Of a stretch of 64,000 bases of DNA, positions 1-64,000 are shown piece after piece. The notes below the pieces were generated by a model that saw only the letters and a list, made by a program, of their open reading frames with translations, had not been told where the DNA came from and searched no databases. Source of the DNA: a virus. Lineage: Duplodnaviria > Caudoviricetes. The stretch's first letter is position 1. Each line of letters starts with the position of its first letter. Both the position numbers and the translations under genes were made by a program. The stretch is taken from IMG/VR virus record IMGVR_UViG_3300042367_000066, positions 188-64,187 of that record; one strand, written 5' to 3'.

Positions 1-166
1 TCGTAATGTCGCAGTTGTCAAAAACATCATTACATTTTCTAATGTCATATTTTAGTTTTGCAATTGCTTTTTCTCTTGCTTCATCTAAGCTATCCGCTTC
101 AACTTCTCCATAATCAAATGAAGTCCAAATTGTTTGTGTTGAATTACTGTAAGTGTAAAGTGCCAT
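1..166 (-). CDS. Early hypothetical protein, 5' part (runs off window start)
   Basis: ATG at 166 after A-rich leader; MALYTYSNSTQTIWTSFDYGEVEADSLDEAREKAIAKL... open to position 1; not in ORF track. Confidence 0.7.
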   Translation of the reverse strand, partial: MALYTYSNSTQTIWTSFDYGEVEADSLDEAREKAIAKLKYDIRKCNDVFDNCDIT

Positions 167-272
167 AATTTCTGTTTTTTAGTTATTAATTTGTCTACAT
201 CATATTTTCCTTTATAAGCTATCTCAAGGAGGGAACGTGTCAAACCCCTCTGAAGACCGTCATAGTGTTAAC

Positions 273-467
273 CTATCTTCTAAATCCGAATGCATCTCCT
301 AGATCGTTTACATAGTACACTGCATTCGACGTGTAACTTCCATATATAGCGCCTCCCGTTGATAGTGCTACTATTAAGAAGCAGGCTCCCGCATTTTTTC
401 TAGCCTTAACTAGTTTAGTGAAGTTTTCGTTTGTAATCTCATTTGCTTTGTTGATAATTGATGTCAT
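273..467 (-). CDS. Early hypothetical protein (64 aa)
   Basis: Track ORF 273..506 re-started at ATG 467 (MTSIINKANE...), because the longer start lies inside the hammerhead core. Confidence 0.65.
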   Translation of the reverse strand: MTSIINKANEITNENFTKLVKARKNAGACFLIVALSTGGAIYGSYTSNAVYYVNDLGDAFGFRR

Positions 468-480
468 AATAAATAGTATT

Positions 481-534
481 AAACGTTTCGCCATTCTGTG
501 GCTCATCAGTAAGGATACACATCCTTATACGTTT
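481..534 (-). ncRNA. Hammerhead ribozyme, type III
   Basis: RNA: AAACG-UA-UAAGGAU(GUGU)AUCCUUA-CUGAUGA-GCCA(CAGAA)UGGC-GAAA-CGUUU; full core, three perfect stems, GUA cleavage triplet (cut between 528 and 527). Confidence 0.93.
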
Positions 535-711
535 CTAAACCAATTACAAGACTCCCACCTTGCAATCTTTATAACACCTATTCGATGCTGTTTACATTTC
601 GCTCTTCACGGCTCCTAATCCGCTTATAACACCTGTTTGTTCAGTAGAGTGGTTATGGTTACACTTAAACCTCCGTCACTTTTTAAAACTGTGATCTCGT
701 TTTCAACACTG

Positions 712-719
712 CAAACATA
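712..719 (-). promoter_or_regulatory. Bacteroidetes sigma-70 -7 element (early leftward promoter)
   Basis: TATGTTTG on - strand matches TAnnTTTG; upstream of the early gene arm. Confidence 0.7.
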
Positions 720-806
720 CGACAACTATCAATTACAATCCTAATTTTTAACAAATATTTAACATTTGGCTCGGTTTTATTGGGCTCAGAAGGTATAGAA
801 TTTTAA

Positions 807-814
807 CAAACATA
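807..814 (-). promoter_or_regulatory. Second leftward -7 element
   Basis: TATGTTTG on - strand, 95 bp upstream of the first. Confidence 0.5.
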
Positions 815-994
815 CTAAGTTATTGATAACGTGTGAGTTATGAGATTTCTCTATTTTTTAATAATAAGTACACGCGCGTGAGGGGACTTGTTTTATTGCT
901 CGTGTGAGGATCTCTGAACACAAAAACATATAATTTCGTACTGTACGCAAGATTATGCTCTCTCAAGCCAACAAACGTGTTCAAAACGTCGGTG

Positions 995-1322
995 GAATGT
1001 AAGCAAAACCTCGGGAAGTCCCTAGAATGTAAAGGTGGCGTTAAAAATGTAAAGAAATGTAAACTTTTTTTAAACTTTACATCGCGCTAACCCTTGGTAT
1101 CATTGACTTAAGCCTCAAAAATGTAAGAATGTAAACTTTACTCCCTTCTTCACAGCGAAAAAAATATATATATTATAATAATTATCTATAGGCTGTATAT
1201 AGGGTATAAACCCGCATTTCTACATTTTACTACGTAATCGTAGTGATATCAACGGCTCACACGATGTAACGGTTCCAAATACATTACATTTGCTTTACAT
1301 TTCCTTACATTTATTCTACATC
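995..1322. repeat. Origin-like region: ATGTAA iterons (left) and TTACAT/TACAT inverted copies (right) around an AT-rich core
   Basis: aatgtaa at ~997, 1027, 1047, 1056, 1120, 1128; ttacat/tacat cluster at ~1221 and 1284-1321; AT core 1158-1185; non-coding, at the transcription divergence point. Confidence 0.6.
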
Positions 1323-1549
1323 GGAGCGCGTCATCGCCCGTAAACATGGGGCAACGTGGCGGGAATACCACCTAGTTGACGTGTGGTCTGGAGAGGTACC
1401 CACCTGGCACCCCAGGAAAAGCCTAGAAATCTGGAGGGAAATCTTGCTTTTGGTACCCCAGGGGTCTAAAAAGAATCGGTTTCCATTTTGGACGGCTCAC
1501 GCAAACTCAATATATAACCCAACACCTAAAAATTTATAATATTTTTTTA

Positions 1550-1557
1550 TATCTTTG
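1550..1557 (+). promoter_or_regulatory. -7 promoter element
   Basis: TATCTTTG, 4 nt before ATG at 1562. Confidence 0.7.
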
Positions 1558-1561
1558 TACC

Positions 1562-1699
1562 ATGGAAATAGAAATTCAAAACAGATTTAACATCGGTCCA
1601 TCTATAGGATGGGGATTCTATCCGATAGACGAAGATTATGACGACAACGAGTTGATCATTTATTTAACATTTATAAGTATACATTTCAGATGGGTATAA
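1562..1699 (+). CDS. Small hypothetical protein (45 aa), probably leaderless
   Basis: MEIEIQNRFNIGPSIGWGFYPIDEDYDDNELIIYLTFISIHFRWV; below ORF-track cutoff; overlaps next start. Confidence 0.6.
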   Translation: MEIEIQNRFNIGPSIGWGFYPIDEDYDDNELIIYLTFISIHFRWV

Positions 1700-1872
1700 A
1701 CAAGAAGATGCCAGTTCAAGAGATTGGCTTGTACAGGATGGCAAAAGAGAAAAAGGCCATGCACGAGAGAAAAGAGATTGTAGAGGAGTCTATGATGATG
1801 GCTAGCGCCATGGCAATGTCAAAGGAGATGAAGGCTCCTATGCACAACATCATAATGAAGAAGAAGAAGTAA
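1690..1872 (+). CDS. Small Met/Lys-rich hypothetical protein
   Basis: ORF in operon context, followed by terminator. Confidence 0.6.
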   Translation: MGINKKMPVQEIGLYRMAKEKKAMHERKEIVEESMMMASAMAMSKEMKAPMHNIIMKKKK

Positions 1873-1904
1873 GTTCACCTCTCATTCGAGTGGAAGAAAT
1901 CATT

Positions 1905-1937
1905 AAACGCATAGCTTAAATGTTATGCGTTTTTTTT
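1905..1937 (+). terminator. Intrinsic terminator
   Basis: AAACGCATAGC-TTAAAT-GTTATGCGTTT then T-run. Confidence 0.8.
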
Positions 1938-1938
1938 G

Positions 1939-1946
1939 TATATTTG
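1939..1946 (+). promoter_or_regulatory. -7 promoter element for sponge/chaperonin operon
   Basis: TATATTTG directly after the terminator, 25 nt before ATG 1972. Confidence 0.7.
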
Positions 1947-1971
1947 TCGCATATAATTTAAATTAAATAAA

Positions 1972-2199
1972 ATGGAATTAACATTCGGTGAAAAACTAGT
2001 TGGACTAACATTCAACCCATCAGGAGATGAAAAAGTACAAAGAGCAAAGGAGCTATGTGCTGAACTAGCAGATTTATTAAATCAAAATGCAGATCCAAAT
2101 CCTGAAAGACCTTTGTGTAGATTATTATTTGACAAAGCCATTGGAGACATTCTAGATGCACAGATGAATGTAGTTAAAGTATTAACTTTTAATTACTAA
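1972..2199 (+). CDS. Probable Acb2/Tad1-family helical-hairpin protein (cyclic-nucleotide sponge)
   Basis: 75 aa; TFGEK.VGLTFNPSGD..V...K...A.L.D...A...I..AQM.VVK..T pattern recalled for this family. Confidence 0.55.
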   Translation: MELTFGEKLVGLTFNPSGDEKVQRAKELCAELADLLNQNADPNPERPLCRLLFDKAIGDILDAQMNVVKVLTFNY

Positions 2200-2201
2200 T
2201 C

Positions 2202-3809
2202 ATGGAAGAATTTGGATACAGTCCCAAGGAACTACTGTTCGACGAGGAAGGAAGAGCAAAACTAATTACAGGCATAACTACAATTGCCAAGGCGGTTAAG
2301 AGCACGCTAGGACCAAGGGGTCGTACGGTTCTGATCGAGTCACCGAACCATACACATGGTATCACAGTTACAAAGGATGGGGTAACGGTTGCTAAGTCAA
2401 TCTTCTTGCTAGACCCAGTGGAGAACCTAGCCGTCAAGATGATGAAGGAGGCAGCAGATAGGACAGCCACCAGTGCTGGAGATGGAACCACAACAGCCAT
2501 CGTGCTTACGGAGGCAATCGTGAGACAGGGTCAGGAGCTCTTGAACGAAAAACACAACGTGACCGAGGTGATCAAGAACATCAACAGCGTTTCAAACGGT
2601 ATCATCCACAGCCTTGAGAGATCATCCAAGAAGGTGAGTGGAAAGACGCTGCACAACGTGGCATCTATCTCGGCCAACAACGACAACGAGATCGGTAAGA
2701 TCATATCAAACGCATACACGAAGGTTGGTAAGAATGGGATCGTAACGATCGAGAACTCACAGACTGCTGAGACCTACTCAGAGTTCACGAATGGGATCAA
2801 GATCGGAAGGGGTTACACCTCGAACATGTTCGTGAACGACTTCAAGAACGACGAGTGCATCATGGACGATGTGTTGGTGCTGGTTACAGACCAGGAGATA
2901 TCCAACATCCTGTCGATAGAGGGGGTTCTAAAGACGGTGATACAGGAGAACAAGAAGCTGCTCATCATAGGACCATGCAACCAGAACGTGATCAACACGC
3001 TGGCAGTCAACGTGGTGAAGAACAAGCTGAAGTTCTGTAACATTGCACCACCAGAGTTCGGTTACAAGATGAACGAGCTGATGAGCGACATCGCGCTGTC
3101 TTTGGGTGCGAAGTACTTCTCGGAGAGCACAGGAGACGACCTAAGTCTGATATCAATAGAGGATTTAGGTAGGGCAGAGAGGATCATAATAGGAAGGGAT
3201 ACTTCGTCCATCATCAAGCCAGAGAGCAAGCAGCAGGACGTAGACGACAGAGTCAGTCAGCTGTGGGTAGCTCACGAGGCTGCACAGAAGAAGCAGGACA
3301 AGGAGTTCATCAAGAGTAGGATTGCCAGCCTTACAGGTAGCATCGCTGTTATATACGTGGGAGGTAACTCTGATTTGGAGCAGAAGGAGAGAAAGGACAG
3401 GGTAGACGACGCGGTATGCGCGGTAAGGTCTGCACTAGAGGAGGGGATCCTTCCAGGAGGAGGCTTAGCCTTGTTCAACGAGTCCTACAGAATCATTGTA
3501 GACGCAGATGACATGATAGAGGACATCAGTGCGGAGCAGTACGTAGCTATGCAGATCATGGCAAGGGCTATACAGGCACCGTTGTTGCAGATCCACGAGA
3601 ACGCAGGTAACGATGGGTACGAGATCATGACTGGATGTGCATCAAACACGAACACTGGGTACGACGTTAAGAACGACGTGTACGGTAACATGTACGATAT
3701 GGGGATCATAGACCCACTGAAGGTTACGAAGAACGCGCTTAAGAACGCTGTCAGTGTGGCCACAACAATACTTAGTACTAACGCAATTATAACAATGACA
3801 CGAGCATAA
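2202..3809 (+). CDS. groEL: Phage chaperonin GroEL (Cpn60)
   Basis: STLGPRGR, VTKDGVTVAK, AGDGTTTA, EEGILPGGG, GIIDPLKV motifs; lacks C-terminal GGM tail. Confidence 0.97.
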   Translation: MEEFGYSPKELLFDEEGRAKLITGITTIAKAVKSTLGPRGRTVLIESPNHTHGITVTKDGVTVAKSIFLLDPVENLAVKMMKEAADRTATSAGDGTTTAIVLTEAIVRQGQELLNEKHNVTEVIKNINSVSNGIIHSLERSSKKVSGKTLHNVASISANNDNEIGKIISNAYTKVGKNGIVTIENSQTAETYSEFTNGIKIGRGYTSNMFVNDFKNDECIMDDVLVLVTDQEISNILSIEGVLKTVIQENKKLLIIGPCNQNVINTLAVNVVKNKLKFCNIAPPEFGYKMNELMSDIALSLGAKYFSESTGDDLSLISIEDLGRAERIIIGRDTSSIIKPESKQQDVDDRVSQLWVAHEAAQKKQDKEFIKSRIASLTGSIAVIYVGGNSDLEQKERKDRVDDAVCAVRSALEEGILPGGGLALFNESYRIIVDADDMIEDISAEQYVAMQIMARAIQAPLLQIHENAGNDGYEIMTGCASNTNTGYDVKNDVYGNMYDMGIIDPLKVTKNALKNAVSVATTILSTNAIITMTRA

Positions 3810-4051
3810 TGGGATTATATAGAAAAAAACCAGTAGTAATTGAAGCAATTCAATGGGATGGAAATACTGAACCAATGTTAGATTTTTGCAAAAGCGCTGA
3901 ATTTATAGATGGGGAGCTATACATTCAAACCTTAGAAGGTAATATGAAAGCATCAATAGGTGACTTTATAATAAAAGGAGTACAAGGAGAGTTTTACGCT
4001 TGCAAACCAGATATTTTTAACTTAACATACGAAAAAGAATTATGGAAGTAA
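3809..4051 (+). CDS. Conserved phage protein (RKKPVVIEA...TLEG...GEFY.CKPDIF family)
   Basis: Widespread phage motif pattern; function unknown. Confidence 0.75.
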   Translation: MGLYRKKPVVIEAIQWDGNTEPMLDFCKSAEFIDGELYIQTLEGNMKASIGDFIIKGVQGEFYACKPDIFNLTYEKELWK

Positions 4052-4338
4052 CAACAATCACCAACGGATCATCGCTTTATAGCGGAATAGGAACAACAAC
4101 AGGTACAACATCAGGGTTGTATATAACACCAGAAAACAAAATGAAGCAAGTAAAGGTTGCAATATTCAACGTAACAAGAGATGAGAATTACGATATAATA
4201 GACTCTACATTTGACCAAGAGGTATGGGTTTGTCAGAAGAAAGGGGTATCGCTAGAGGTCGCCACAATGAAGCAGCTAGGGTACGTAATAGATCCAGACA
4301 AGCAAGTCATAAGAGAGTTCTTATCAATAACAATATAG
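4042..4338 (+). CDS. Hypothetical protein
   Basis: ORF overlapping neighbours in operon. Confidence 0.6.
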   Translation: MEVTTITNGSSLYSGIGTTTGTTSGLYITPENKMKQVKVAIFNVTRDENYDIIDSTFDQEVWVCQKKGVSLEVATMKQLGYVIDPDKQVIREFLSITI

Positions 4339-4339
4339 T

Positions 4340-4597
4340 ATGCAGCCAATCAATAAATACTTAGTAATCAACACAATAGAGGAGCAGATGAGGACCCAGT
4401 CGGGTCTGCTGCTCACTGGAAACGAGACAGAACAGTTCAGGTACAAGAAGGGAGAGGTTGTGAAGCCTGGAACTAACGTGGACTGCGTGAAGGAGGGAGA
4501 TATAATATACTACGACAAGAACGCTGGTTACACGATGCTGGTAAACGACATCAAGTACACAGTGATCATGGAGAGAGACATCGTGGTTGTCCTCTAG
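4340..4597 (+). CDS. groES: Co-chaperonin GroES (Cpn10)
   Basis: MQPINKYLVI, mobile loop RTQSGLLL, GEVVKPG, VKEGDII, ERDIVVVL. Confidence 0.9.
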   Translation: MQPINKYLVINTIEEQMRTQSGLLLTGNETEQFRYKKGEVVKPGTNVDCVKEGDIIYYDKNAGYTMLVNDIKYTVIMERDIVVVL

Positions 4598-5058
4598 ATC
4601 TTCTGATCCTCTATATCCTTGAGCCTCTTGAGTTCCTTACGCGTACGATTCATCTTACGAATAATGGGCCTGGAGGCTCTCTCGGTATAGGAGGCGTCGG
4701 TCCTGAACATCGGGTTAGAGACTGGGTTCTCTGAGACGTGAACCTTGAGCTCTATCTTCTCGTATATGTCTGTTATAACCCTGCGAGTCTTGTAGGAGGC
4801 CTCGTACAGGGCAGCCTCACCGTTCTTGTTCGGTCTCCAGAGCGTGATCCACCCGTCGGCTATCATTCGCTTGAATCGGTCCTTCTCCCAGGTTAGTCCA
4901 GACTCGAACTCCCAGAACTGTCTGTGACGGAAGTACCCCTCGCTGTAGACGAAAAGGAGGATATCGATGTCGGAGCTGCTTAGGTTGTACTTGTGACGAA
5001 TGAGCGTCTTTATTGCCCTCCAGTACTTGAGGTAGTCTGCGTATGGCTTGTATTTCAT
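4594..5058 (-). CDS. Winged-helix (MarR-like) DNA-binding protein, possible regulator
   Basis: KYNLSSSDIDILLFVY...RFKRMIADGWIT...LYEAS pattern; only - strand gene in the + arm; has its own promoter. Confidence 0.55.
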   Translation of the reverse strand: MKYKPYADYLKYWRAIKTLIRHKYNLSSSDIDILLFVYSEGYFRHRQFWEFESGLTWEKDRFKRMIADGWITLWRPNKNGEAALYEASYKTRRVITDIYEKIELKVHVSENPVSNPMFRTDASYTERASRPIIRKMNRTRKELKRLKDIEDQKI

Positions 5059-5072
5059 TTGATTTATTATTA

Positions 5073-5090
5073 TTATCTTTGCAAAGATAA
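5073..5090. promoter_or_regulatory. Perfect 18-bp palindrome forming two overlapping divergent -7 promoters
   Basis: TTATCTTTG|CAAAGATAA: TATCTTTG on + (5074-5081) and on - (5082-5089). Confidence 0.75.
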
Positions 5091-5097
5091 AACATTT

Positions 5098-5373
5098 ATG
5101 ATGGCAAAAACAGCGGCTTGGACCAGAAAAGAAGGAAAGTCAGCATCGGGTGGGCTTAACGAGAAGGGCGTGGCCTCATACAGGAAGGAGAACCCAGGAA
5201 GTAAGTTGAAGATGGCAGTAACAAAGAAGCCATCGGAGTTGAAGGCTGGTAGCAAGGATGCCATGAGACGCAAGTCATTCTGTGCACGAATGTCAGGGAT
5301 GCCAGGACCGATGAAGAAATCAAACGGAGAGCCAACAAGAAAGAAACTAGCTTTAGACAAATGGAACTGTTAA
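5098..5373 (+). CDS. Small basic conserved phage protein (DUF6321-like), copy 1
   Basis: AWTRKEGK..GGLN.KG.ASY...RRKSFCARMSG...KW.C; start moved to ATG downstream of promoter. Confidence 0.75.
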   Translation: MMAKTAAWTRKEGKSASGGLNEKGVASYRKENPGSKLKMAVTKKPSELKAGSKDAMRRKSFCARMSGMPGPMKKSNGEPTRKKLALDKWNC

Positions 5374-5564
5374 AGAGAAAAGACGGGAGCACCTCCAAGA
5401 GAGGACTATGGGACAACATCAGAGCAAACGAAGGATCTGGAAAGAAGCCTACAAAGGCTATGTTAGAGCAAGAGAAGAAGATCAAGAAGAAAGCAAGTCA
5501 GTACGAGTCAGCGAAGTCGTTGAACGGAAAGATGTCATACCTAAAAGGAAACGTAAAAAAATAG
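5361..5564 (+). CDS. Small basic phage protein (GLWDNI type)
   Basis: [10 protein letters not shown] motif; Lys-rich; overlapping operon. Confidence 0.65.
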
Positions 5565-5568
5565 AGTC

Positions 5569-5706
5569 ATGCCATTGAAAAAGGGAAGTAGTCAGAAGGT
5601 AATATCAGCAAATATAAAGATGGAGTTGAAAAAAAATCCATCGATGAGTCAAAAACAAGCAATAGCAATCGCCTTATCTAAGGCAGGTAAAACAAAGAAA
5701 AAATGA
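5569..5706 (+). CDS. Small basic phage protein (45 aa, KQAIAIALS type)
   Basis: [16 protein letters not shown]...[13 protein letters not shown]; below track cutoff. Confidence 0.7.
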
Positions 5707-5816
5707 AAAAAGTATCAGCAAAGTGTTCGTCTAAGATGACTAAAAAAGAAGTGAAACCAGTTCAGAAAAAAGAGAAGTTTGACTTCATGAAGATGATCGC
5801 GAACAAGAAGAAGTAA
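5703..5816 (+). CDS. Small basic protein (37 aa)
   Basis: ATGA and TAATG overlaps with both neighbours. Confidence 0.55.
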
Positions 5817-6091
5817 TGCCAGGAAGGACAGCCAAATACTACGCAGCTAACCCAGAGGCTAAGAAGAAACACAACGACTACCAGAAGGAGTACAACAAGT
5901 CCCCTGATCAGGTAAAGAAGCGTGTCGAACTTAACGCTATTAACAGAAAACGTGGCACGTACGGTAACCAAGACGGACTAGATGCTAGCCACACAAAGAG
6001 TGGTGTAGTTATGAAGAGCGCGTCATCAAATCGCGGATCTAAATGTGCTATGCCTGGAGACAAGAGAGCAAGAGGAACTAAAAACAAATAA
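5816..6091 (+). CDS. Basic protein with degenerate HNH-like motif
   Basis: KKR..LN..NRK..G..DG.D.SH...S.NR resembles small podophage HNH-like proteins. Confidence 0.55.
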   Translation: MPGRTAKYYAANPEAKKKHNDYQKEYNKSPDQVKKRVELNAINRKRGTYGNQDGLDASHTKSGVVMKSASSNRGSKCAMPGDKRARGTKNK

Positions 6092-29795: not shown

Positions 29796-32700
29796 ATGGC
29801 AGATGGACTAAATACAGCTGAGGCATTATTCTACGCTGGAAGAATGAACAAGGACCTTGACGAGAGATTCATAAAGGATGGTGAGTACATAGACGCCTTG
29901 AATATAAGGATCGGATCTACAGAACTAGGTGCTTCAAGCAACTCAGATCTTGGTAGTATTGGTGCTATAGAGAACTCAAAGGGAAACACTTCGTTAACAG
30001 ACATACAGTACGTAAGTAGTGACGCAAAGTGTATAGGAGCGTACGATGATAGTGCTAACGAGACTATATACTGGTTTGTAACATCTACTGATGCCGACCT
30101 TGTGCTCTCGTATAATGTAGACAATGGTGCTACAATATACCACCTAGTATCTTTGTCATTAAATCCTATTTTAAAATTCGATAAGGATTACCTTATAAAT
30201 GGTATAAATAAGATTGACGACTTATTATTTTGGACGGACAACTTGAACCCTCCAAGGAGAATTAATGTAAAAAGCAGTTACGCTACATTTGATGAGAGTG
30301 ACATATCTGTAATAGTTGCTCCACCTATGAGCGCTCCGAAAATTTCATTGTTCAATGTATTAGGAGAGGAGAACTATATGTTAGATAAGTTTCCTTCATT
30401 TTGTTATAGATACAGATACCTTGACGGAGAGTATAGTGCACTATCTCAGTTCTCAGACATAGCATTTGAGCCAGGAGAGTTTGAGTTGGACTATTCTAGA
30501 TTTGTTAATGTTGGAATGACTAACTCGTTTAATTCAGTAAATATAACTTTTAATACTGGACCAAAACAAGTTGTAGGTATAGATATATGTTTTAAATTGT
30601 CAGACTCAAATATTGTAAATGTAATAGAGAAGTTTGACAAGAAAAAAGAACAGTGGGCTAATAATAGAGAAAGGTCGTTAGTATTTACAAATAGAAAGAT
30701 ATATACAACCCTTCCTGAGAGTGAGCTACTTAGATTGTACGATAATGTACCTAGAATTGCAAAGTCTCAGACATCTATTGGTAACAGAATAATGTATGGG
30801 AACTATGTGGATGGGTATGATGTAGGTGAGATAAATTATTCATTAGACGTTATAAGCACAAATTCAGAAAATAATCTATTACCAGTTACATATACAACTG
30901 GATCTGCGTATACAATAGATCCAGGATCTACAAAGAGTGTACCTAAGTCTGTGTTAAATATAGATTTTACAGATTATTCACTAAAAAAAGATTACGTACT
31001 ATCTATAGAATTTAATATTGTAGGTGATTCATTTTCAGGAAATTCAAATTTTAATACTACTACGTCTCCTGCTCCAAACAATGACTTTTCTTTTTCTTTT
31101 TCTTTTTTATTAGAACAAGACTACGACTCAGTTTTTCAAATGGCTACAAGCCAGGAGTTTATAGATGCCATATCTACACACGAGTTGTATGCAGATTCAG
31201 CAGATGGGATATCATTAACAGACTTCTTTAATGCTGATAAGGTGGCTAAGCCAGATGATGGAACATATCCTCAGTGGAACGATATAGATAGTGGGATATT
31301 TAGTACAAATGGAGCCTTCTTAATAACTGCTATTCCAGGAAGTAATATAATTGGAATACAGTGTCCTGCCGTTAAATTTGAAACAGAGTTTCCAACAGGA
31401 ACATTTTTATACGCTTATCAATACTATAATAATTCAATTACTGACGTATTCTTTAGTAAGTTAGGAGCTAAGAGAAGTCTTCATAGTAATAGGGACTACG
31501 AGGTTGCTATTGTGTATATGGACAACTACTTAAGAAGTTCAACGGCACTTGTAGATACAGATAACACAGTTTTTATAGATGCTGTTAACTCTGATTATAC
31601 AAATAACATTAGAGCCACAATAATAAGCAAGGCTCCTAGTTGGGCTACTAAATACAAGTTTGTTCTAAAGCAGTCTGTATCTTCTTATCAAATAGTGTAT
31701 ACAAATTTATTTTTTATAGATGATCTTGGTAACACTTGGTTTAAGTTAGACGGAGATAATAGACAGAAGGTAAGTGAAAATCAAACACTTATAGTTAAGA
31801 GAGATACAAATGGAGTTGTTAAGAACTTAGTAAATACTACTGTACTTGAACTAGTTACACAGGGTGCGAATTTTATAGCTGGAAACGAAAATAGTAACAG
31901 TGAAGCTATATCAGAGCCAGCTGGTCTATATATGAGGCTTCGTCCATCTGGATTCACAGCTGAGTACGATCCTAACTCATTTAAAGATAATGGTAGTTCA
32001 GGGTCAGAAGATAGAGTCTCTTATTATTTTGATGAGTTGAATCCAGCATATATTCCAGGCCCAACTCCTGGTATTAGTGAAACAAATAGAAAGTACAGGC
32101 CATACGCAGTTCCAGCAGGAAGTCAGATATCTTTTAAGATAAGTATGGGAAGGGGAGGTACTGGTGGTAAGTGTCAAGACTTTGGATATACTTTTTCTAA
32201 GAATTATGTGTCATCAAAGGACTATAATAATATGTTCGAGTGGTTTATTGGAGATAAAGTAAATGTAACTACAGGAGAGTTTAGAGGAGCAGGAGAAGCA
32301 AATCCAGAACAAGAACAATACTATGATTTTCAAACTTGGACTAACGGTACAACTGGAAACTCTGGTAATGGAACTAGTTATTATTTTTGGCAGGCAGAGA
32401 ATGCTGCTCAAGGAGATACATTTATTGATCCATATGGATTAGATTATGAACAGGGAAGACTTAAGTTTACAGCTACAACTGGAGTTCCTTGCTGTAGGTG
32501 TGGTGGAATAAATCCAAAACGTTCTTTTGTAGATATACATGTAACAGTTCAGACAGGTTCTGGAGCACTTATATTTGAGACTCAACCAGAGCCGTCAAAT
32601 GGTGAGATATACTACGAGAACAGTCAGAGTTTTGATATAATTGACGAATACCACATGAGTGGTAATGGAGATAATGATCAGAACCAGACCGCAACACAGG

Positions 32701-35075
32701 ACGCGATTATAGACCTAGACTTCTTTAACTGCTTCTCATTTGGAAACGGTGTAGAGAGTTATAAGGTATACGACTCACTTACTGGGGTTCCTTTCTACTT
32801 AGGTAGCAGGGTTACTGCTGTGTCTCAGGAGGACTTCAAGGAAGCTAAAAGATACGCTGGTATTACCTATAGTGGTATATATAACTCAGAGACAAATCTA
32901 AACAAACTTAACGAGTTCAATCTTGCACTCGTGAACTGGAAGGACTGCGAGAAGTCGTTTGGTCCAATTAACGTGCTACACGGAAGGAAGACAGATGTGC
33001 TTGTTCTTCAAGAGGATAAGGTTTCAAATGTGTTAGTTGGTAAGAACTTACTTTCTGATGCAGCTGGTGGTGGAGCAATAACAGCTACACCAGAGGTCCT
33101 TGGAACTCAGATAGCTAGGATAGAGGAGTACGGAATAAGTAGTAACCCAGAGAGCTTTGTTGTGTATGGTTACGACTCGTACTTCACAGACACTAAGAGG
33201 AACGTGGTTCTTAATCTAAAGGGTGAGGATTTGATTCCTATATCTAACACTGGGATGAGTAGCTGGTTTAGGAATAAGTTTAAGGACAGGGTTGGATACC
33301 AGAATATTGGAGGTTACGACCCGTATATGAAGGAGTACGTACTATCTCTTAGTGATAATAAGTTACCGTCAGAACCAATAGTGTATAACTGTGGAACAAC
33401 AATATCTCAGCAAAATACATCTACACCATCATTTTTTTATGTTGAGGTTGGAAGTATAATTGGCGATGTTGATATAGACTATAACTTCTCTAGCGGAAGC
33501 TCTGCCATAATTGTTAGGTATAATGGAGCTGTGGTTGTAGACAGAACAATTACTGGGACTGGTTTCTATTCGTTCTATAAAACACTGGTAGATCCAACTA
33601 TAATAGAGGTGGAGATGTATCCTGTTGATGCTACTTATAGCATACTATTTAATTGTGCAGCATCTGAAGAGATAACAGTAGTTAGAGTTGTTTTAAACTC
33701 TGTTGATGACATAGGAAAGACCATACATAATAACTATAACTGGACACTTGGGTCTCACACAAGTATTACCAACACAGACTTTATAACAATGGAGAGCGAT
33801 ACTGTGTCTCTATACGATACGGATACAGAGATGGCTTCGTTTGGAGTTATACCTGCGTTTGGAAGTACGGTTAAGATGAGCTCTAATAAACTTACTGGAG
33901 ACACATTTGTCTTTAATAACAGTGATTTCAAGTACCTAATATCCGATACACTATACTCAGAGGGTGAGGTTGACCTATTAAAGTATGAGTTAGACGTGGC
34001 TAGTCCAGTGTTTAACCCTTCAACTGGAAACTACGAGGCTAGTTTTGACTACATCAATCCAAATAGAGAAAAGTATCTATACCTTGTGTGGGATTATATG
34101 ATAAGTACAGAGATAGACCTATGTTACGACGAGTTGTATTTTACTCAAGCATGTATTGATTGTTATACTGGATCTATCCCTAGTGTAATAACAACAAGCC
34201 TATCTAGCATAGCTAGTACTACAGCAACATCTGGTGGGACAATACTTAGTGGTGGTGGATCTAATATAACTGACAAGGGAGTTGTATGGAGTACGTCTCC
34301 AAACCCAACAACAAGCCTTCCAACGAAGACAAATGATGGAACTGGTACTGATTCATTTATTAGCTCTATTACAGGGCTTACACCTAGTGTTACATACTAC
34401 GTTAGGGCATACGCTATAAATGGAGTTGGAACTGCTTATGGAAATGAGTTATCTTTTACATCAGCGGTACCTGCGTTGCCTACGGTAAAGATTTGCGATC
34501 AGACTTGGACACTATATAATCTTGATGTTACAAAATATAGAAATGGAGATGATATTCCACAAGCAGCTACTGATGCAGATTGGTTAGATAAAGGTGCAAA
34601 TGGAATAGGAGCCTGGTGTTATCCAAACAACGATCCAGCAAATGGTCCAATATATGGTAAGTTATATAACTGGTATGCAGTGAATGACACTGCCCATGGT
34701 GGGTTAGCACCTGTAGGATACCATGTTCCATCAGATGCAGAATGGACTACATTAACCAATAATTGTTTAGGTGGAGAAAGTGTAGCAGGTGGTAAAATGA
34801 AATCAACAGGTACAGTAGAAGCAGGTACTGGTTTGTGGTATAGCCCTAACACAGGCGCTACAAATTCTAGTGGTTTTACAGGTATTCCTGCAGGTAATCG
34901 AAGTTCAGTTGGAGCGTTCCTAACAGCATTTAGAGGGGGTGGGGCTTGGTGGAGTTCTTCAGAGTACAATGAATTCCAAGCCTTTTGGCGCTACATGATT
35001 TACAATACAGATAATGTTACTAGTTTCAACGCTAATAAAAGAAATGGTTTATCAGTAAGACTAATAAAAGATTAA
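29796..35075 (+). CDS. Tail nozzle/stabilisation protein (N-terminal part) fused to FN3 and FISUMP (Fib_succ_major) domains
   Basis: GRMNKDLDER...GEYIDALNI; LLFWTDNLNPPRRIN; GGYDPY; C-terminal GL.P..TYYVRAYA.N and NL.VT.YRNGD...YGKLYNWYAV...GLSVRLIKD. Confidence 0.8.
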   Translation: MADGLNTAEALFYAGRMNKDLDERFIKDGEYIDALNIRIGSTELGASSNSDLGSIGAIENSKGNTSLTDIQYVSSDAKCIGAYDDSANETIYWFVTSTDADLVLSYNVDNGATIYHLVSLSLNPILKFDKDYLINGINKIDDLLFWTDNLNPPRRINVKSSYATFDESDISVIVAPPMSAPKISLFNVLGEENYMLDKFPSFCYRYRYLDGEYSALSQFSDIAFEPGEFELDYSRFVNVGMTNSFNSVNITFNTGPKQVVGIDICFKLSDSNIVNVIEKFDKKKEQWANNRERSLVFTNRKIYTTLPESELLRLYDNVPRIAKSQTSIGNRIMYGNYVDGYDVGEINYSLDVISTNSENNLLPVTYTTGSAYTIDPGSTKSVPKSVLNIDFTDYSLKKDYVLSIEFNIVGDSFSGNSNFNTTTSPAPNNDFSFSFSFLLEQDYDSVFQMATSQEFIDAISTHELYADSADGISLTDFFNADKVAKPDDGTYPQWNDIDSGIFSTNGAFLITAIPGSNIIGIQCPAVKFETEFPTGTFLYAYQYYNNSITDVFFSKLGAKRSLHSNRDYEVAIVYMDNYLRSSTALVDTDNTVFIDAVNSDYTNNIRATIISKAPSWATKYKFVLKQSVSSYQIVYTNLFFIDDLGNTWFKLDGDNRQKVSENQTLIVKRDTNGVVKNLVNTTVLELVTQGANFIAGNENSNSEAISEPAGLYMRLRPSGFTAEYDPNSFKDNGSSGSEDRVSYYFDELNPAYIPGPTPGISETNRKYRPYAVPAGSQISFKISMGRGGTGGKCQDFGYTFSKNYVSSKDYNNMFEWFIGDKVNVTTGEFRGAGEANPEQEQYYDFQTWTNGTTGNSGNGTSYYFWQAENAAQGDTFIDPYGLDYEQGRLKFTATTGVPCCRCGGINPKRSFVDIHVTVQTGSGALIFETQPEPSNGEIYYENSQSFDIIDEYHMSGNGDNDQNQTATQDAIIDLDFFNCFSFGNGVESYKVYDSLTGVPFYLGSRVTAVSQEDFKEAKRYAGITYSGIYNSETNLNKLNEFNLALVNWKDCEKSFGPINVLHGRKTDVLVLQEDKVSNVLVGKNLLSDAAGGGAITATPEVLGTQIARIEEYGISSNPESFVVYGYDSYFTDTKRNVVLNLKGEDLIPISNTGMSSWFRNKFKDRVGYQNIGGYDPYMKEYVLSLSDNKLPSEPIVYNCGTTISQQNTSTPSFFYVEVGSIIGDVDIDYNFSSGSSAIIVRYNGAVVVDRTITGTGFYSFYKTLVDPTIIEVEMYPVDATYSILFNCAASEEITVVRVVLNSVDDIGKTIHNNYNWTLGSHTSITNTDFITMESDTVSLYDTDTEMASFGVIPAFGSTVKMSSNKLTGDTFVFNNSDFKYLISDTLYSEGEVDLLKYELDVASPVFNPSTGNYEASFDYINPNREKYLYLVWDYMISTEIDLCYDELYFTQACIDCYTGSIPSVITTSLSSIASTTATSGGTILSGGGSNITDKGVVWSTSPNPTTSLPTKTNDGTGTDSFISSITGLTPSVTYYVRAYAINGVGTAYGNELSFTSAVPALPTVKICDQTWTLYNLDVTKYRNGDDIPQAATDADWLDKGANGIGAWCYPNNDPANGPIYGKLYNWYAVNDTAHGGLAPVGYHVPSDAEWTTLTNNCLGGESVAGGKMKSTGTVEAGTGLWYSPNTGATNSSGFTGIPAGNRSSVGAFLTAFRGGGAWWSSSEYNEFQAFWRYMIYNTDNVTSFNANKRNGLSVRLIKD

Positions 35076-39455: not shown

Positions 39456-42400
39456 ATGGAAGAAAATAATTTCGTACCGCCATCTGACGCAGTTGTAACT
39501 AAGTCTAAAAAAAGTAACTTTGTTCCTCCAACAGACGCTATATTAAAAAAAAAAGTAGATTCAAAGCCTCGTTCTCAAGAGGAACTGTGGGGATCAGACT
39601 CACAACCTCAAGATTTGTATACTTCTTTGGCTACAGGCGCACAGGAACCTCAACAGGAATCGGATGGTTTAGGTGGGCCGCCTAGTCCACCTGTAAAGAA
39701 GAAGCCTTCTGTACTATTTCCAGAGACTCCAATGGGACGTCCTGCATCTTCTGTTATGTATGAAACTAAACAGCCTGTACTAGTTGAGTCAACTCCATTT
39801 GAGACAAAACCTAATAAGTACTACAGAATGGTTTCTGACGAGAAGAAGGCGGTTGAGCAACAACTATCTGACCTTGAAGAAAGAAACACTAGACTAGGAA
39901 GAAGACCTGAGGACCTAACTACAGAGGGTACGTACCAGGCACTACAAAAACAGAAGGCTCAACTTGACCAAGAGTTCGAGCCAGCTCAGACAGCTATTAA
40001 GCAAATACAAAGGCAGGCTGCAGAAACTAACCAACCATTTGAAAGAATTGTTTACGGAGCTACAGATGGAAAGTATTCGTACTTCACGACTGATATAATA
40101 AATCTAAATAAAGACGTAGAGGATAAAATTATAGATAGATTTGATGACGCTCCAGAAGAGACTAAAAAAAAGTGGTACAAGGGAGCTCTTCCTGTTGAAG
40201 CCAAGGAGGCAATAATAAATTCAGCAAAGAATGAAGTACTTACTGACAAGTACAATATATTAAAAAAAGATGCAGATAACTACATTAAGAACATAAAGGA
40301 TAATCCAGCTATTCCACTTGAAGAAAAGTTAAAATTTCAGAAGGAGTTTAAAGATAGTAGTGATGCATTTAATTCTCAGATAGCTTTAGATTACTCTGGT
40401 AAATTATTAAAGAATAACTTTAAGATAACAGACGCTAATAAGGGTATGGATGAGGCTATACTTAGCAAGTATAAAGGGTTTATACCAGATACAGTAGATG
40501 TATTATCTACTTTTGTAGAGGGTATGGGTCAGGTTGGTGCTAAGGTAGCAACTGGTATTCCTAGTCTAGCTTTAATTGGAGCTGAAAGATTTAATCAGTT
40601 AACTGGAATATCTAAACCAGATGACTACACAGCGATAGAGGCTACAGAAGACTGGATAAACGACACTACAAATCTTAACTTTCTTCCTAGCTCTCAGACA
40701 AAAAGAGGAAACATTGTAGTTGATGGAGAATTTAATCCGAGTTATTATAGCATGACTAAAACTCTTGCAAAAACACTTCCGTTTACATTAAAGATAATGA
40801 GTGATGTAAAGAAGGGAAGAATAGACGGTACGCCTCAGTCAATGATATCTCAGTTAGTAAATCCAAAGTATAGTAAGGACTTTGCAGATAAGTTAAGGGT
40901 TGTTGAGACTGCGTACAAGGGCACTATTTCAGATAATTATAGAGAAGCTAAAGAGATGGGTATGGACGACTCTAAGTCATTCCTTTACGCCAATACTATG
41001 TCTTTGGCAGAGGGTGTTTCTGAGAATATTATGCCTGACTATAAGTACTTCGACTCTTTAACAGGATCAGCACTAAAGTCTGCGTTCAAGGGTAACTTAA
41101 AACAGGCAGTCACAAAGCAGGCGGCAAAGAATGTAACAAAGGACTTTTTTAAGAATTTTGTTCTAGAGACTGGAGAAGAAGAGGTTATACTAGCAACTGA
41201 GGATGCCCTTAAGTACTCACTACTACTAAACCACAAGAACTCTGAGTTCTTTAACATGAGTAGACAGAAGGAGTTAGTAGCTACAACTGCACTATTATCT
41301 GGAGCCTTGGGTACTGTTTCTACAAATCAAAAGTTTAAACAAAACAAGAAGGACTTATACAATAGCATCCATAGTAATATATACGATCTACAGGACGCTT
41401 TTCTTGATGAGATAGACTCTCCTTTAAACGATCAGAAGGCTAAGGAGGCCCTTATAACTGCATACAAGTTTGCTAATGACGTTTCAGTTGCAGTGTCTAA
41501 CGCTCCAGAGAATGTAACCGCTGATCAGATAGACTTGCTAGTTCAAAAGAAGAACTTAGAGGAGAAGAAGAAGACCATAGATACAGCGTTCCATCCAGAT
41601 ATAAACGAGGAGATTACCGCTATAGACACTAAGATTAGAGAGTTGGCTAAGATTCCAGTTGCAGTAGAGGAAGTAACTCCTGCTGAAGTTGTAGTAGAAG
41701 AACCTGCAGTAGAAGAAGTAAAACCTACTGAAATAAAACCATCAGGGCAGAAGGTAACAGACGTTATAAACAGACCTGCCACGCTTGAGTCACAGGCTGG
41801 TGTCAAGTTAGAGACTCCTATCGAGGGGGACGTGTACCAGGAGGGTCAGAGGGTTATATTCGAGGACAAGAACAAGAAGGTATACGACCTTGGAAATATC
41901 GATGAGATATCTGACAAGACCGTAGAGGAACTAGGAATTAAGCCACAGGAGGAGATGGTAAGCGTCACTCTAGAGGGTAAGGTTAAGGTAGGAGAGAACG
42001 AATGGAACATGCAGTCTGATTTACCTAACTATGGTATCGAGTACGACAAGGATGGGAATGTAAAAGCTATATCACTAAAAGATGACGCTGGAAAGACCGT
42101 CATGTACGAGGGACAGGTTGCAGAGGACGCTGCGTATCAGGTTCTACTAAAGCAGACAGAGACACCAGAACAGAGACAAGCTATAAACGAAATATTAGAA
42201 AACGATGAAGAACTCAATCGACAACTTAGAGAGGCTGAAGAAGCTACCCAAGCAGCAGCAGCTGAAGTTACTGAGCCAGGTGCTCCAAAAACTCAAGCAG
42301 AACAGTACTCCGAAGAGCTAGACAAGACCAAGGAGTCTGATCCAGAGGCCTACTGGTCCGTAAGTCCAGTGTCAGCTGCAGATGCTGCCAAGGGAACCAT

Positions 42401-57522: not shown

Positions 57523-57589
57523 TGGTCAAGGGGTTGGAATCGAACCAACGACTTTCTTTCGACCCTCTAACCAATGAGGTACCCTTGAC
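57523..57589 (-). ncRNA. tRNA-like RNA with vestigial anticodon arm (67 nt)
   Basis: GUCAAGGG/CCCUUGAC acceptor, D arm CCUC-AUUGGUUA-GAGG, T arm GUUGG-UUCGAUU-CCAAC, ends ...GACCA; anticodon arm only UC-GAAA-GA. Confidence 0.75.
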
Positions 57590-57727
57590 TTTGTTGAGAT
57601 TGGAGCTTTGGATACCCTACTTCCCTATAAGTACTCAACTCCTTCTATGCGCTGATAGGACTTAACATTCGTGGTATGCAAACTACCCAATGTCTGTTAC
57701 TGTACTATTTGCGTCAAGTAACTGCTG

Positions 57728-57820
57728 ATCTTGTGGCAGGATTCGAACCTGCACCACCCCGTACCTGCCGAGATATTACTGATTGATTACAGTAAGTGCT
57801 AACCATTACACCACACAACA
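57728..57820 (-). tRNA. Atypical tRNA/pseudo-tRNA with 8-nt anticodon loop and long variable arm
   Basis: D arm GUGU-AAUGGUUA-GCAC; UUACUG-UAAUCAAU-CAGUAA; variable UAUCUCG/CGGGGUG; T arm GCAGG-UUCGAAU-CCUGC; acceptor has a G:G mismatch; identity unassignable. Confidence 0.65.
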
Positions 57821-63275: not shown

Positions 63276-63349
63276 AGTATTGATTTTATAATTAGTACCC
63301 ATACTGATATGCAGATTAATATTAATACTGCCCATACAATTCCTTTCAT
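63272..63349 (-). CDS. 25-aa membrane peptide
   Basis: MKGIVWAVLILICISVWVLIIKSIL; ATG just after hammerhead A; ATGA overlap with next gene. Confidence 0.55.
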   Translation of the reverse strand: MKGIVWAVLILICISVWVLIIKSIL

Positions 63350-63365
63350 AATAAATATATTTAAT

Positions 63366-63418
63366 GGTTAAGACACCCACTTGGGGTGTTTCGATCATTT
63401 AGATCTCGTCAGTTAACC
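63366..63418 (-). ncRNA. Hammerhead ribozyme, type I (A)
   Basis: GGUUAA-CUGACGA-GAUC(UAAAU)GAUC-GAAA-CACCC(CAAGU)GGGUG-UC-UUAACC; cut between 63372 and 63371. Confidence 0.93.
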
Positions 63419-63604
63419 TTGGCTCTCAATCCAACGTCTAAACGCAATAGCCACGTCTCCATCACTCCAATTAACTTCGTCTGCCTTGTCGCATACATCG
63501 TCATAACAAAATTGAGTTATGTCGTCAATATTGCTTGGAATATCGATATTTATTCTATCAAATATATCGATAATTAAACCTTGAATTTCATTTTTTTTGT
63601 CCAT
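63413..63604 (-). CDS. Acidic early protein (63 aa)
   Basis: Between hammerheads B and A; its TAA lies in stem I of A. Confidence 0.7.
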   Translation of the reverse strand: MDKKNEIQGLIIDIFDRINIDIPSNIDDITQFCYDDVCDKADEVNWSDGDVAIAFRRWIESQG

Positions 63605-63622
63605 GATAAATATTTTTTAATT

Positions 63623-63677
63623 GGTTAATACACCCCGTAGTGGGGTGTTTCGGATACTTAATCCTCATCAGTTAACC
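63623..63677 (-). ncRNA. Hammerhead ribozyme, type I (B)
   Basis: GGUUAA-CUGAUGA-GGAU(UAAGU)AUCC-GAAA-CACCCC(ACUAC)GGGGUG-UA-UUAACC; compensatory changes relative to A. Confidence 0.93.
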
Positions 63678-63754
63678 TAGATTATTGATATTAAAGTTAG
63701 AAATACTGCCCATAGTACTAGGGCAAGTCCGATGTCTTTTAGGTTCTTATCCAT
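63677..63754 (-). CDS. 25-aa membrane peptide
   Basis: MDKNLKDIGLALVLWAVFLTLISII; TAG overlaps first base of hammerhead B. Confidence 0.5.
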   Translation of the reverse strand: MDKNLKDIGLALVLWAVFLTLISII

Positions 63755-63872
63755 AGATTCCAAATGTTAGGTGGGAGCACTCTCCCGTTACTAATCCTAC
63801 TACTACTCTTAAAAATCCTGCCACGAATAACGTGGTCAAAGATGCTACAAAAACTTTTTCAAATGTGTTCAT
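63747..63872 (-). CDS. 41-aa membrane peptide
   Basis: MNTFEKVFVASLTTLFVAGFLRVVVGLVTGECSHLTFGIYG; ATG just after hammerhead C. Confidence 0.55.
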   Translation of the reverse strand: MNTFEKVFVASLTTLFVAGFLRVVVGLVTGECSHLTFGIYG

Positions 63873-63888
63873 GATAAATATATTTAAT

Positions 63889-63941
63889 GGTTAAGACACC
63901 CACTTGGGGTGTTTCGATCATTTAGATCTCGTCAGTTAACC
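63889..63941 (-). ncRNA. Hammerhead ribozyme, type I (C), identical to A
   Basis: Same sequence as 63366-63418; cut between 63895 and 63894. Confidence 0.93.
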
Positions 63942-64000
63942 TTTTGTACTATTTTTTTAATTCTACTTCTGTTTGGCTATAATCCATATCAATTGTCAAT

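Follow-up and report, generated by a model that had tools for sequence, protein, structure and literature searches.

The roles of hammerhead ribozymes in bacteria and phages were called "largely elusive" in a 2019 review (PMC6765202). The haloviruses HF1 and HF2 are among the described systems closest to the locus discussed here: in an early polycistronic transcript of these viruses, the HHphage hammerhead precedes the start codon of the first open reading frame (ORF) by 13 nt, and a mapped 5′ end lies at most 3 nt from the cut (Perreault et al. 2011, PMC3088659). Our subject is a type III hammerhead at positions 534..481 on the minus strand of a 64,000-nt stretch of viral DNA (called the window hereafter), which comprises positions 188..64187 of the 64,187-nt record IMGVR_UViG_3300042367_000066. 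The features described below are on the minus strand unless the plus strand is named. Judging from its sequence and from its relatives, this hammerhead is probably a functional ribozyme at the boundary of the first cassette in the early operon of a Flavobacteriia podovirus, where it would act as an insulator and as a natural site of processing.

The hammerheads of the haloviruses and of the window share their position, 13 nt before the first start codon of an early transcript. HF1 and HF2 are archaeal viruses, however, and their ribozyme is a structural variant which needs very high Mg2+; no conserved structured leader, downstream series of type I hammerheads or cassette mosaicism is described for it there (PMC3088659).

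Hammerheads are also clustered around single genes in prophages. All the copies cleave in vitro, and a role in the processing of long phage transcripts was proposed (PMC3088659). In the clusters from Agrobacterium tumefaciens (ardA region), Azorhizobium and Clostridium scindens, as in the window, several ribozymes punctuate one phage transcript between single variable genes (PMC3088659, PMC6765202). The window differs from these clusters in the fixed order of a type III hammerhead followed by type I hammerheads, in the uniform start regions of the Bacteroidota type and in a non-coding leader as the first cassette. Moreover, the phages concerned here are lytic Flavobacteriia podoviruses rather than prophages: when 185,579 species genomes (bacterial and archaeal) were scanned, the ribozyme core gave 0 matches.

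In RNA viruses of fungi and plants, translation requires the hammerheads in the 5′ untranslated regions (UTR) (PMC13725137, 2026). Self-cleavage just upstream of an ORF is tied to translation initiation in these viruses, but they are eukaryotic viruses with RNA genomes and cap-independent translation, and their ribozymes are mostly of type I, according to the same source.

Hammerhead-punctuated phage operons are thus a known kind of arrangement that has already been published. In the literature searched, what appears to be new is the order rule, the exchangeable families of structured leaders, the start region matched to the host, and the occurrence of the unit in cultured phages.

In RiboJ-type synthetic insulators, a type III hammerhead separates the translation start from a promoter or 5′ leader that can vary, and the mRNA has a constant start with a 5′ hairpin. 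These insulators are engineered, whereas the arrangement of the window is natural and is found in about 80 contigs, and the leader that would be removed is itself conserved and structured.

Structure of the type III hammerhead

From 534 down to 481, the hammerhead reads AAACGU-A-UAAGGAU-GUGU-AUCCUUA-CUGAUGA-GCCA-CAGAA-UGGC-GAAA-CGUUU. Stem III (534-529/486-481, 6 bp) is open, short and A/U-rich, while stem I (527-521/516-510, 7 bp) and stem II (502-499/493-490, 4 bp) are closed by loops. The core is complete, with CUGAUGA at 509-503, GAAA at 489-486, and both U529 and A528 (H17) in place. The cleavage triplet is GUA and the predicted cut lies between A528 and U527. The minimum free energy (MFE) fold is exactly this three-stem structure. 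Direct reading bears out the earlier note on this DNA, which had described a type III hammerhead ending 13 nt before the AUG at 467: the spacer occupies 480-468.

The Rfam model RF00008 (Hammerhead_3) gives 534..481 a score of 43.2 bits (E-value of 4.1e-6 for the whole window and 3.9e-8 for 601 nt), which is below the curated gathering cut-off of 48.5, so that the gathering score does not assign it to the family. This is why the default Rfam scan missed the element: it returned only a tRNA for the window, and hammerheads emerge only under E-value thresholds. The low score results from a stem II loop that is shorter, and a stem I that is longer, than in the seed consensus.

The cleavage of hammerheads yields a 2′,3′-cyclic phosphate and a 5′-OH (PMC6765202). 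Cleavage at the predicted site would therefore deprive the mRNA of its 5′-triphosphate, as the earlier note had proposed, and leave it on the leader.

Conservation and covariation of the ribozyme

The relatives compared with the window are loci or contigs designated by L-numbers (L002, L004, etc.). An exact search with the 26-nt core returned 11 viral contigs, and a pattern which accepts either base at one stem II pair returned 14 further viral and 56 metagenome contigs. The ribozyme core is thereby present at 82 viral and metagenomic loci, window included. Stem II is mispaired in none of the 82 (C-G in 54, U-A in 28) even though the pattern permitted mispairs; these sequences were fetched by an exact match to the core and stem II.

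A covariance model (R1) was built from 17 sequences and has 71 matches in 64 sources; it scores the hammerhead of the window at 79.8 bits. In the 61 distinct sequences, which are related to one another and aligned by fitting to the model, standard pairs fill 96.4% of the cells, compared to 69.1% in shuffled sequences and 28–36% with slid partners. Changes on both sides are seen at 12 of the 17 pairs (280 cells), in all three stems, and none of 500 shuffles reached the covariation score of the ribozyme. The core hardly varies among the 71 matches: CUGAUGA is present in 71 and GAAA in 70. H17, which immediately precedes the cut, is an A in 41 matches, a C in 29 and a U in one, and it is never G.

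Taken alone, the statistics of the single sequence are weak. The fold z-score of −1.61 is not significant, and the bare core pattern has two matches in the window for 1.41 expected, which is no better than chance. The comparative evidence is the decisive support for the ribozyme, and it indicates that selection acts on the RNA fold. With a full core and three helices that covary, 534..481 can be considered a genuine, conserved type III hammerhead.

Cassette boundaries and start regions

The first early ORF (ORF1, 273..467, AUG at 467-465) encodes 64 amino acids without a family match. A homologue with 88% DNA identity is present in L002 and L164 behind a different leader, which shares only 43 of 179 positions with that of the window. 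In L004 the situation is reversed: leader and ribozyme are 100% identical to those of the window and ORF1 is unrelated. In L003, L006, L008 and L012, the ribozyme is 100% identical, and both the leader and the ORF differ. The ribozyme thus sits exactly at the mosaic breakpoints, and the leader, the ribozyme and the first gene recombine independently of one another.

This position is also what would be expected of a catalytically dead relic that acts as a recombination linker between cassettes at the DNA level. Identical copies of the type I unit of this genome have even misled the assembly (see below). But the selection detected bears on RNA pairing and not on DNA identity, as judged from the 280 cells with two-sided changes, the core that is invariant in 71 of 71 matches, and an H17 that is never G. 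We consider a dead relic highly improbable.

The ribozyme is followed by a 13-nt A/U-rich spacer, AAUACUAUUUAUU (468..480), with A at −3, −12 and −13 from the start codon. Such A/U-rich spacers are found behind both types of ribozymes, the most frequent length being 13 nt for type III. A is present at −3 in 55 of 63 type III contexts and in all 45 type I contexts, at −13 in 47/63 and 39/45, respectively, and at −12 in 39/63 and 39/45. Flavobacterium johnsoniae was reported by Baez et al. to lack Shine-Dalgarno sequences; what favors initiation in this organism is a weakly structured region between −20 and +20, together with A residues at −3, −6, −12 and −13 (PMC6847099). Since the A residues of the spacer coincide with these determinants, each ribozyme seems to be followed by a start region of the Bacteroidota type, optimised for the host.

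Order of the hammerheads in the early operon

The minus-strand unit which starts near 707 runs through position 1 of the window and on to 64000 and downward. It comprises, in this order, the leader, the type III hammerhead, ORF1, a second small ORF (ORF2), and then three type I hammerheads that alternate with ORFs. ORF2 (2..166) spans the record junction, and shortly after its end comes the first type I hammerhead (63889..63941), for which the stems could be parsed and which scores 25.2 bits with Rfam RF00163, for a cut-off of 34. The next one, at 63623..63677, is a CUGAUGAG variant, and the one at 63366..63418 is identical to the first; the stems of both could also be parsed. Small ORFs come after the third type I hammerhead, followed by the genes for a Sak-like annealing protein, an exonuclease, a primase/helicase and a helicase. 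The early operon is about 16 kb long and contains many ribozyme hairpins. GroEL, terminase, portal and virion proteins are encoded on the plus strand. The earlier note spoke of the first early transcript, and this is a fair description of an operon in which small genes precede those of recombination and replication, opposite the terminase, portal and virion genes.

We surveyed the position of the ribozyme in the 66 type III contexts that were parsable, out of 68 distinct ones. An AUG that opens an ORF lies 8–34 nt downstream (mode 13) in 63 of the 66. None has another hammerhead within 3 kb upstream on the same strand, so that the ribozymes of the operon always begin with a type III hammerhead. 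Further hammerheads are found downstream in 36 of the 66, and in the window via the circle; they are of type I, or a second type III comes first and type I after it. Many of the loci are short and the lack of downstream hammerheads in the others is uninformative. The rule of type III first and type I afterwards is conserved, which suggests that the topology has a reason in function and not only in history.

This bears on another proposal of the earlier note, according to which ribozyme punctuation was acquired at least twice. A comparison of the two types supports its premise, since neither the sequence nor the topology of the type III hammerhead is related to that of the type I copies. The proposal itself is no more than plausible, and the order rule argues that more than history is involved.

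Several variations of this organisation were observed. The spacer between ORF1 and ORF2 (167-272) starts with GGUUAAC, like the type I hammerheads, and has a G/C-rich hairpin without a hammerhead core; an Rfam search of 272-167 with E-values up to 10 returned nothing. A type I hammerhead occupies this position in L002, whose ORF1 is homologous. The spacer of the window may be a decayed or replaced type I unit. In another phage group (L128, L129, L135, L140, L160 and L187), the operon opens with a pair of type III hammerheads spaced by about 285 nt, both of which precede a small ORF, and type I hammerheads lie further on.

Promoter and predicted transcript start

The earlier note had placed a promoter, TATGTTTG, at 719..712, and this box of the −7 type (712..719) can be read directly. 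It fits the Bacteroidota consensus TANNTTTG but has a G at −9. The −7 box of F. johnsoniae is T-12 A-11 .. T-8 T-7 T-6 G-5, and G at −9 is almost absent from the promoters of this organism (PMC6847099). In the same study, sigma-A promoters are defined by TTTG at −33, TANNTTTG at −7 and no G at −10 or −9. Where the consensus has its −33 TTTG, only a TTG is found upstream of the box of the window, 16 nt away. The sigma-70 promoter scan does not apply to Bacteroidota. The transcript start is predicted at G707 from the consensus spacing only (G712 being G-5).

The boxes of relatives fit the consensus fully, as in Elemovirus (TATATTTG) and L195 (TACATTTG). The 15-mer TATGTTTGCAGTGTT is kept in nine relatives whose downstream leader differs. 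A scan of viral contigs with the 15-nt promoter pattern gave at least 120 matches, mostly in unrelated phages which have the same word; about six new relatives are among the matches listed.

A second copy of TATGTTTG is present at 814-807, and transcription could start at this box or further upstream, which would make the released fragment longer and different. Promoter-like boxes also occur in tandem in L082 and L171, and the segment 720-800 is strongly conserved. On the other hand, the upstream box is not kept as TANNTTTG in L007, L008 and L011, whereas the proximal box followed by GCAGUGUU is kept in most relatives, and the leader core of L082 and L152 starts 4 nt past this proximal box and GCAGUGUU. 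An upstream start is therefore unlikely.

The same promoter word was observed in other settings. In L047 and L067, which belong to an unrelated phage group, it directly precedes small ORFs with type I hammerheads between them, whose sequence is different. In L073 (minus strand), it is followed by the first 12 nt of a type A-like leader (the leader types are described below) and then by a sequence containing GGUUCAAAUCC, which resembles the T-arm of a tRNA, without a hammerhead. L073 possibly carries a different RNA cargo behind the same promoter.

The leader RNA

The predicted 5′ cleavage product is a non-coding leader of 180 nt (528..707) with the ends 5′-PPP...GUA>p. The earlier note had found no credible ORF in it, and rightly so: the sole ORF on this strand (624..725, 33 amino acids, TTG start) begins upstream of the predicted transcript start. 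A search of Rfam 15 (4227 models) gave no credible match to the leader in the window 300-900 at E-values up to 10, and only hammerheads were found at 11 loci of relatives at E-values up to 1. Two other candidates were rejected. A leader-encoded peptide was discarded since no ORF is conserved in relatives, and a Shine-Dalgarno-like decoy since the GGAGGUG of the window is not conserved either.

At least three families of leaders occupy the slot behind the conserved promoter word: type A/A′, which is the commonest, type B and type C. The leader of the window is of type B, together with those of L004, L171, L136, L177 and L191. Type C comprises L006, L007, L120, L132, L180 and L188. These families are candidates for new RNA classes, because none of them is in Rfam. 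The leader of L004 is 100% identical to that of the window, and those of L177, L191, L136 and L171 are 86–97% identical. Overall, type B leaders are about 94% identical, compared to 77–88% for the flanks in the same phages, and a 78-nt core is almost invariant while the flanks diverge.

The type B leader contains several hairpins. From the 5′ end, the first is P1 (676..694, UCAC...GUGA), which shows compensatory changes in A4 and type A leaders (AUCAC/GUGAC, ACUAC/GUAGC, ACCAC/GUGGC). It is followed by P2 (657..671, GGUU-UAAGUGU-AACC) and then AUAA. The stem of P2 is GGUU/AACC or GGUG/CACC among type B leaders, and AGUG/CACU, AGUC/GACU or CUG/CAG are found at its position in type A leaders. 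A hairpin at 608..623 (GCGG-loop-CCGU, flanked by AUAA and GAAG) is a module common to type A leaders; the homologous helix of A3 has four pairs, 100% paired, with an A-U to G-C exchange at one of them. The hairpin at 573..589 (AGCAUC-GAAUA-GGUGUU) has a RAAUA pentaloop, and a U.G pair of its stem becomes U-A in L136. The terminal hairpin (542..567) is GAUUGCAAG-GUGGGAGU-CUUGUAAUU, with arms at 567..559 and 550..542, where the earlier note had seen it; it appears in the MFE fold, and has a C-G to U-A change in L136 and wobble-compatible changes in L171, L177 and L191. In P1 and P2 as well as in the RAAUA and terminal hairpins, the few changes among type B leaders either compensate each other or are compatible with a wobble pair.

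The 11-nt direct repeat AGGUGUUAUAA reported by the earlier note is real. Copy 1 (624..634) is invariant in five of five type B leaders and copy 2 (579..569, i.e., 569-579) makes up one strand of the RAAUA hairpin. The suggestion of a protein sponge fares less well, since the two copies belong to different helices and form no obvious array. A pairing of copy 1 with AUAACCAC (656-649, beside P2), around the hairpin CUG-AACAAA-CAG (644-633), is weakly supported. One co-variation in L136 hints at alternative pairings, a single event which proves nothing.

For type A leaders, a core structure with helices P3, P3b, P4, P5 and P6 was proposed by eye, in which P5 abuts stem III of the hammerhead. In 18 distinct sequences, 95.7% of the cells are paired, compared to 83.6% in shuffles and 28–39% with slid partners, and 11 of the 20 pairs have changes on both sides, a result reached by none of 500 shuffles; the structure was derived from these same sequences, and the test is supportive rather than independent. 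A search with a motif of the type A leader returned 10 viral loci, and the ribozyme is downstream in all 10. A RAAUA-loop hairpin with a stem of 3 bp or more occurs in all three types, in 30 of the 34 distinct leaders, for a background of 1.0 in 34 in shuffles and of 152 in 5000 (3%) in random windows of the same loci.

The covarying helices and the identity of about 94% among type B leaders, higher than that of their flanks, indicate that the leader is a structured RNA under selection.

The earlier note proposed that the released leader may be functional in its own right. The leader could be an RNA gene, the ribozyme mainly producing the exact 3′ end of a stable, trans-acting small RNA (sRNA) of the early phage program (decoy, sponge or anti-defence), in a slot for alternative RNA genes. 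The occurrence of at least three unrelated and internally covarying families in the same slot is consistent with this proposal, as are the 78-nt type B core that stays nearly invariant next to diverging flanks, the RAAUA hairpin common to most leaders, and the exact 11-nt repeat within only 180 nt. The type III topology also leaves the leader nearly free of ribozyme sequence. But the 3′ end of the leader has no protective fold, no signal of thermodynamic stability is detected, and the 5′ part of the leader ranges from 4 to more than 100 nt between relatives. We regard an sRNA as possible, but rather unlikely.

In a broader version of this proposal, the slot between promoter and hammerhead would be a locus for interchangeable phage RNA genes. 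Unrelated families, at least three, would be swapped by recombination, the same ribozyme would mature their 3′ ends, and the RNAs would be released in the first minutes to act in trans, e.g., as a decoy for a defence protein or for an RNA-binding protein that recognises the RAAUA hairpin. This is doubtful; if true, it would represent a ribozyme-matured, cassette-encoded early sRNA system in Bacteroidota phages.

Alternatively, the leader could act in cis on transcription. In the lambda nut site (boxB) and in HK022 put, a structured leader RNA is found directly downstream of a phage early promoter, and the small hairpin has a purine-rich pentaloop. Similarly, the leader of the window could be a nut/boxB-like or put-like RNA for processive antitermination in the long early operon, which would bind RNA polymerase or load a factor onto it and which the hammerhead would then remove from the mRNA. 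Indeed, it lies directly after the early promoter of an operon of about 16 kb full of stable ribozyme hairpins, and its G/AAAUA pentaloop resembles the GAANA loop of lambda boxB. Most of the pentaloops start with A and not with G, however, and the leader of the cultured Elemovirus lacks the RAAUA hairpin. The minus strand has no predicted intrinsic terminator in 1..2300, and no boxA-like element or arginine-rich N-like protein was found, although no systematic search was made. The lambda and HK022 elements have no demonstrated homology to the leader, in sequence or in factors, and in the window the ribozyme cuts the leader off; cutting the tether to the polymerase is expected to weaken a mechanism in cis. 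Antitermination therefore seems quite improbable.

A model for processing and insulation

In the reading that we favor, that of a processing site and insulator, the host RNA polymerase would start near G707 and produce the structured, non-coding leader of about 180 nt. The ribozyme would then fold and cut after GUA, between 528 and 527, and the short A/U-rich stem III of 6 bp would melt after the cut. The leader would be released with a 5′-triphosphate, a 2′,3′-cyclic phosphate and only seven nucleotides of the ribozyme. The mRNA would start with a 5′-OH and the two ribozyme hairpins, followed by the constant A-rich spacer of 13 nt before the AUG. The start region, which is partly paired in stem III before the cut, would become single-stranded behind these two 5′ hairpins. 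The ribozyme would thus free the expression of the first gene from the identity of the upstream leader cassette.

Together with the downstream type I copies, the type III hammerhead would divide the early polycistronic transcript into mRNAs of one gene each, whose start regions would be uniform. With the type III topology, the downstream mRNA would keep the ribozyme fold as a 5′ structure. With the type I topology, the upstream mRNA would keep the fold as a 3′ structure and the downstream mRNA would receive a short, unstructured, A-rich 5′ end. Since the product that keeps the fold differs between the two, the topology would depend on the position in the operon, and a trans-acting leader would not be needed. 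The leader could be no more than a 5′ UTR that is shed.

A number of points weigh against this reading. The −7 box has the G at −9 that is rare in F. johnsoniae, the start at 707 is derived from a consensus, and a second box lies upstream. The word TATGTTTG has 16 copies in the window for 3.4 expected, mostly within genes, and this word alone is therefore no promoter marker. The RF00008 score remains under the gathering cut-off, and the ribozyme sequences were retrieved and aligned by means of the core and the model themselves. The leader has no thermodynamic signal (MFE z-score of +0.13). The role of insulator is suggested by the mosaicism and the uniform spacer, and the type III ribozyme is missing from several relatives, as described in the next section.

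Cultured phages and other relatives

The unit is present in all 68 records of the Flavobacterium phage vB_FspP_elemo (Elemovirus), with 88% identity, in a spacer that is not annotated. In MT497017.1, the promoter TATATTTGCAGUGUU is followed by a leader with P1, P2 and a AAUAAGCGG...CCGUGAAG module, the hammerhead (71.9 bits with R1 and 36.3 bits with RF00008), 13 nt, and an annotated coding sequence. In the literature searched, no paper links Elemovirus, elemo phages or Flavobacterium phages with hammerheads, although the alignments in Dataset S1 of PMC3088659 may already include metagenomic members of the subclass.

The terminase of the window has 45% identity with its counterpart in Flavobacterium podoviruses (Elemovirus) and 35–37% identity with the terminases of Cellulophaga phages. 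Very probably, the host belongs to the Flavobacteriia. When the Rfam hammerhead families were searched in five named relatives, type III was scored in Elemovirus only. No hammerhead of these families was detected in phi38:1, Tenacibaculum Gundel_1 and MW202828.1, and the Cellulophaga phage phi18:3 has a single candidate, a weak one of type I (18.9 bits). The type III ribozyme is thus absent from MW202828.1, whose terminase (72% identity) makes it the closest complete relative, and from the Cellulophaga and Tenacibaculum relatives. Since it is missing from these relatives, the ribozyme appears to be patchy and dispensable in this phage group. A megablast of 1-6000 of the window against named phages gave no match, and BLAST of the type I unit against named phages gave only crAssphage matches at the level of chance.

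Two RNA runs contain small shares of matching sequence (0.07 and 0.05), both as contigs. In a relative, a metatranscriptome contig of 486 nt (depth 101) extends from the leader through the uncut site into the next gene, and contigs upstream of the promoter have a similar depth; these contigs reveal neither transcription, ends nor cleavage.

Genome context

The last 127 nt of the window are identical to positions 57-183 of the record. The first 56 nt of the public record are mis-joined to the wrong copy of a type I hammerhead unit of about 66 nt that is repeated identically (L001 1-187 compared with window 63295-64000). This mis-join hides the end overlap of 127 nt, and the record was therefore classed as "linear". 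Given the overlap and the mis-joined start, the genome is either circular or terminally redundant.

A non-coding region of 1.5 kb separates the divergent early and late operons. It contains about 10 copies of AATGTAA(A) (minus strand TTTACATT) at 988-1321, which have the appearance of iterons or operator sites. In relatives, the region 720-1000 is strongly conserved as well. The first gene of the plus-strand operon encodes a phage GroEL chaperonin (2202-3809, PHROG 5725, E-value of 9e-134). Further along the plus strand are an ORF of 2665 amino acids (39456-47453) with almost no family match, and a virion protein of 1759 amino acids (29796-35075). They hint at large virion proteins that are internal or ejected, which other Bacteroidota podoviruses also have.

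The minus strand also carries a tRNA-like gene of 94 nt with a long insertion (57727-57820), to which ARAGORN assigns a 4-base anticodon (atca) and which scores 33.7 bits with the Rfam tRNA model. A second, weak tRNA-like match (57525-57589) lies 140 nt downstream, with 29.4 bits for the tRNA-Sec model, below the cut-off.

Biological meaning

The locus can be viewed as a clean natural design, with one promoter, an exchangeable and conserved leader, a type III hammerhead first, type I hammerheads later, and start regions optimised for Bacteroidota. It leads to testable predictions about insulation, the end chemistry and stability of the mRNAs, and a ribozyme topology that depends on position. 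The unit is present in all 68 cultured Elemovirus records, whose host is known and harmless, and the question is therefore open to direct study at the bench. The old question of the role of phage hammerheads thus becomes experimentally tractable with cultured Flavobacterium phages.

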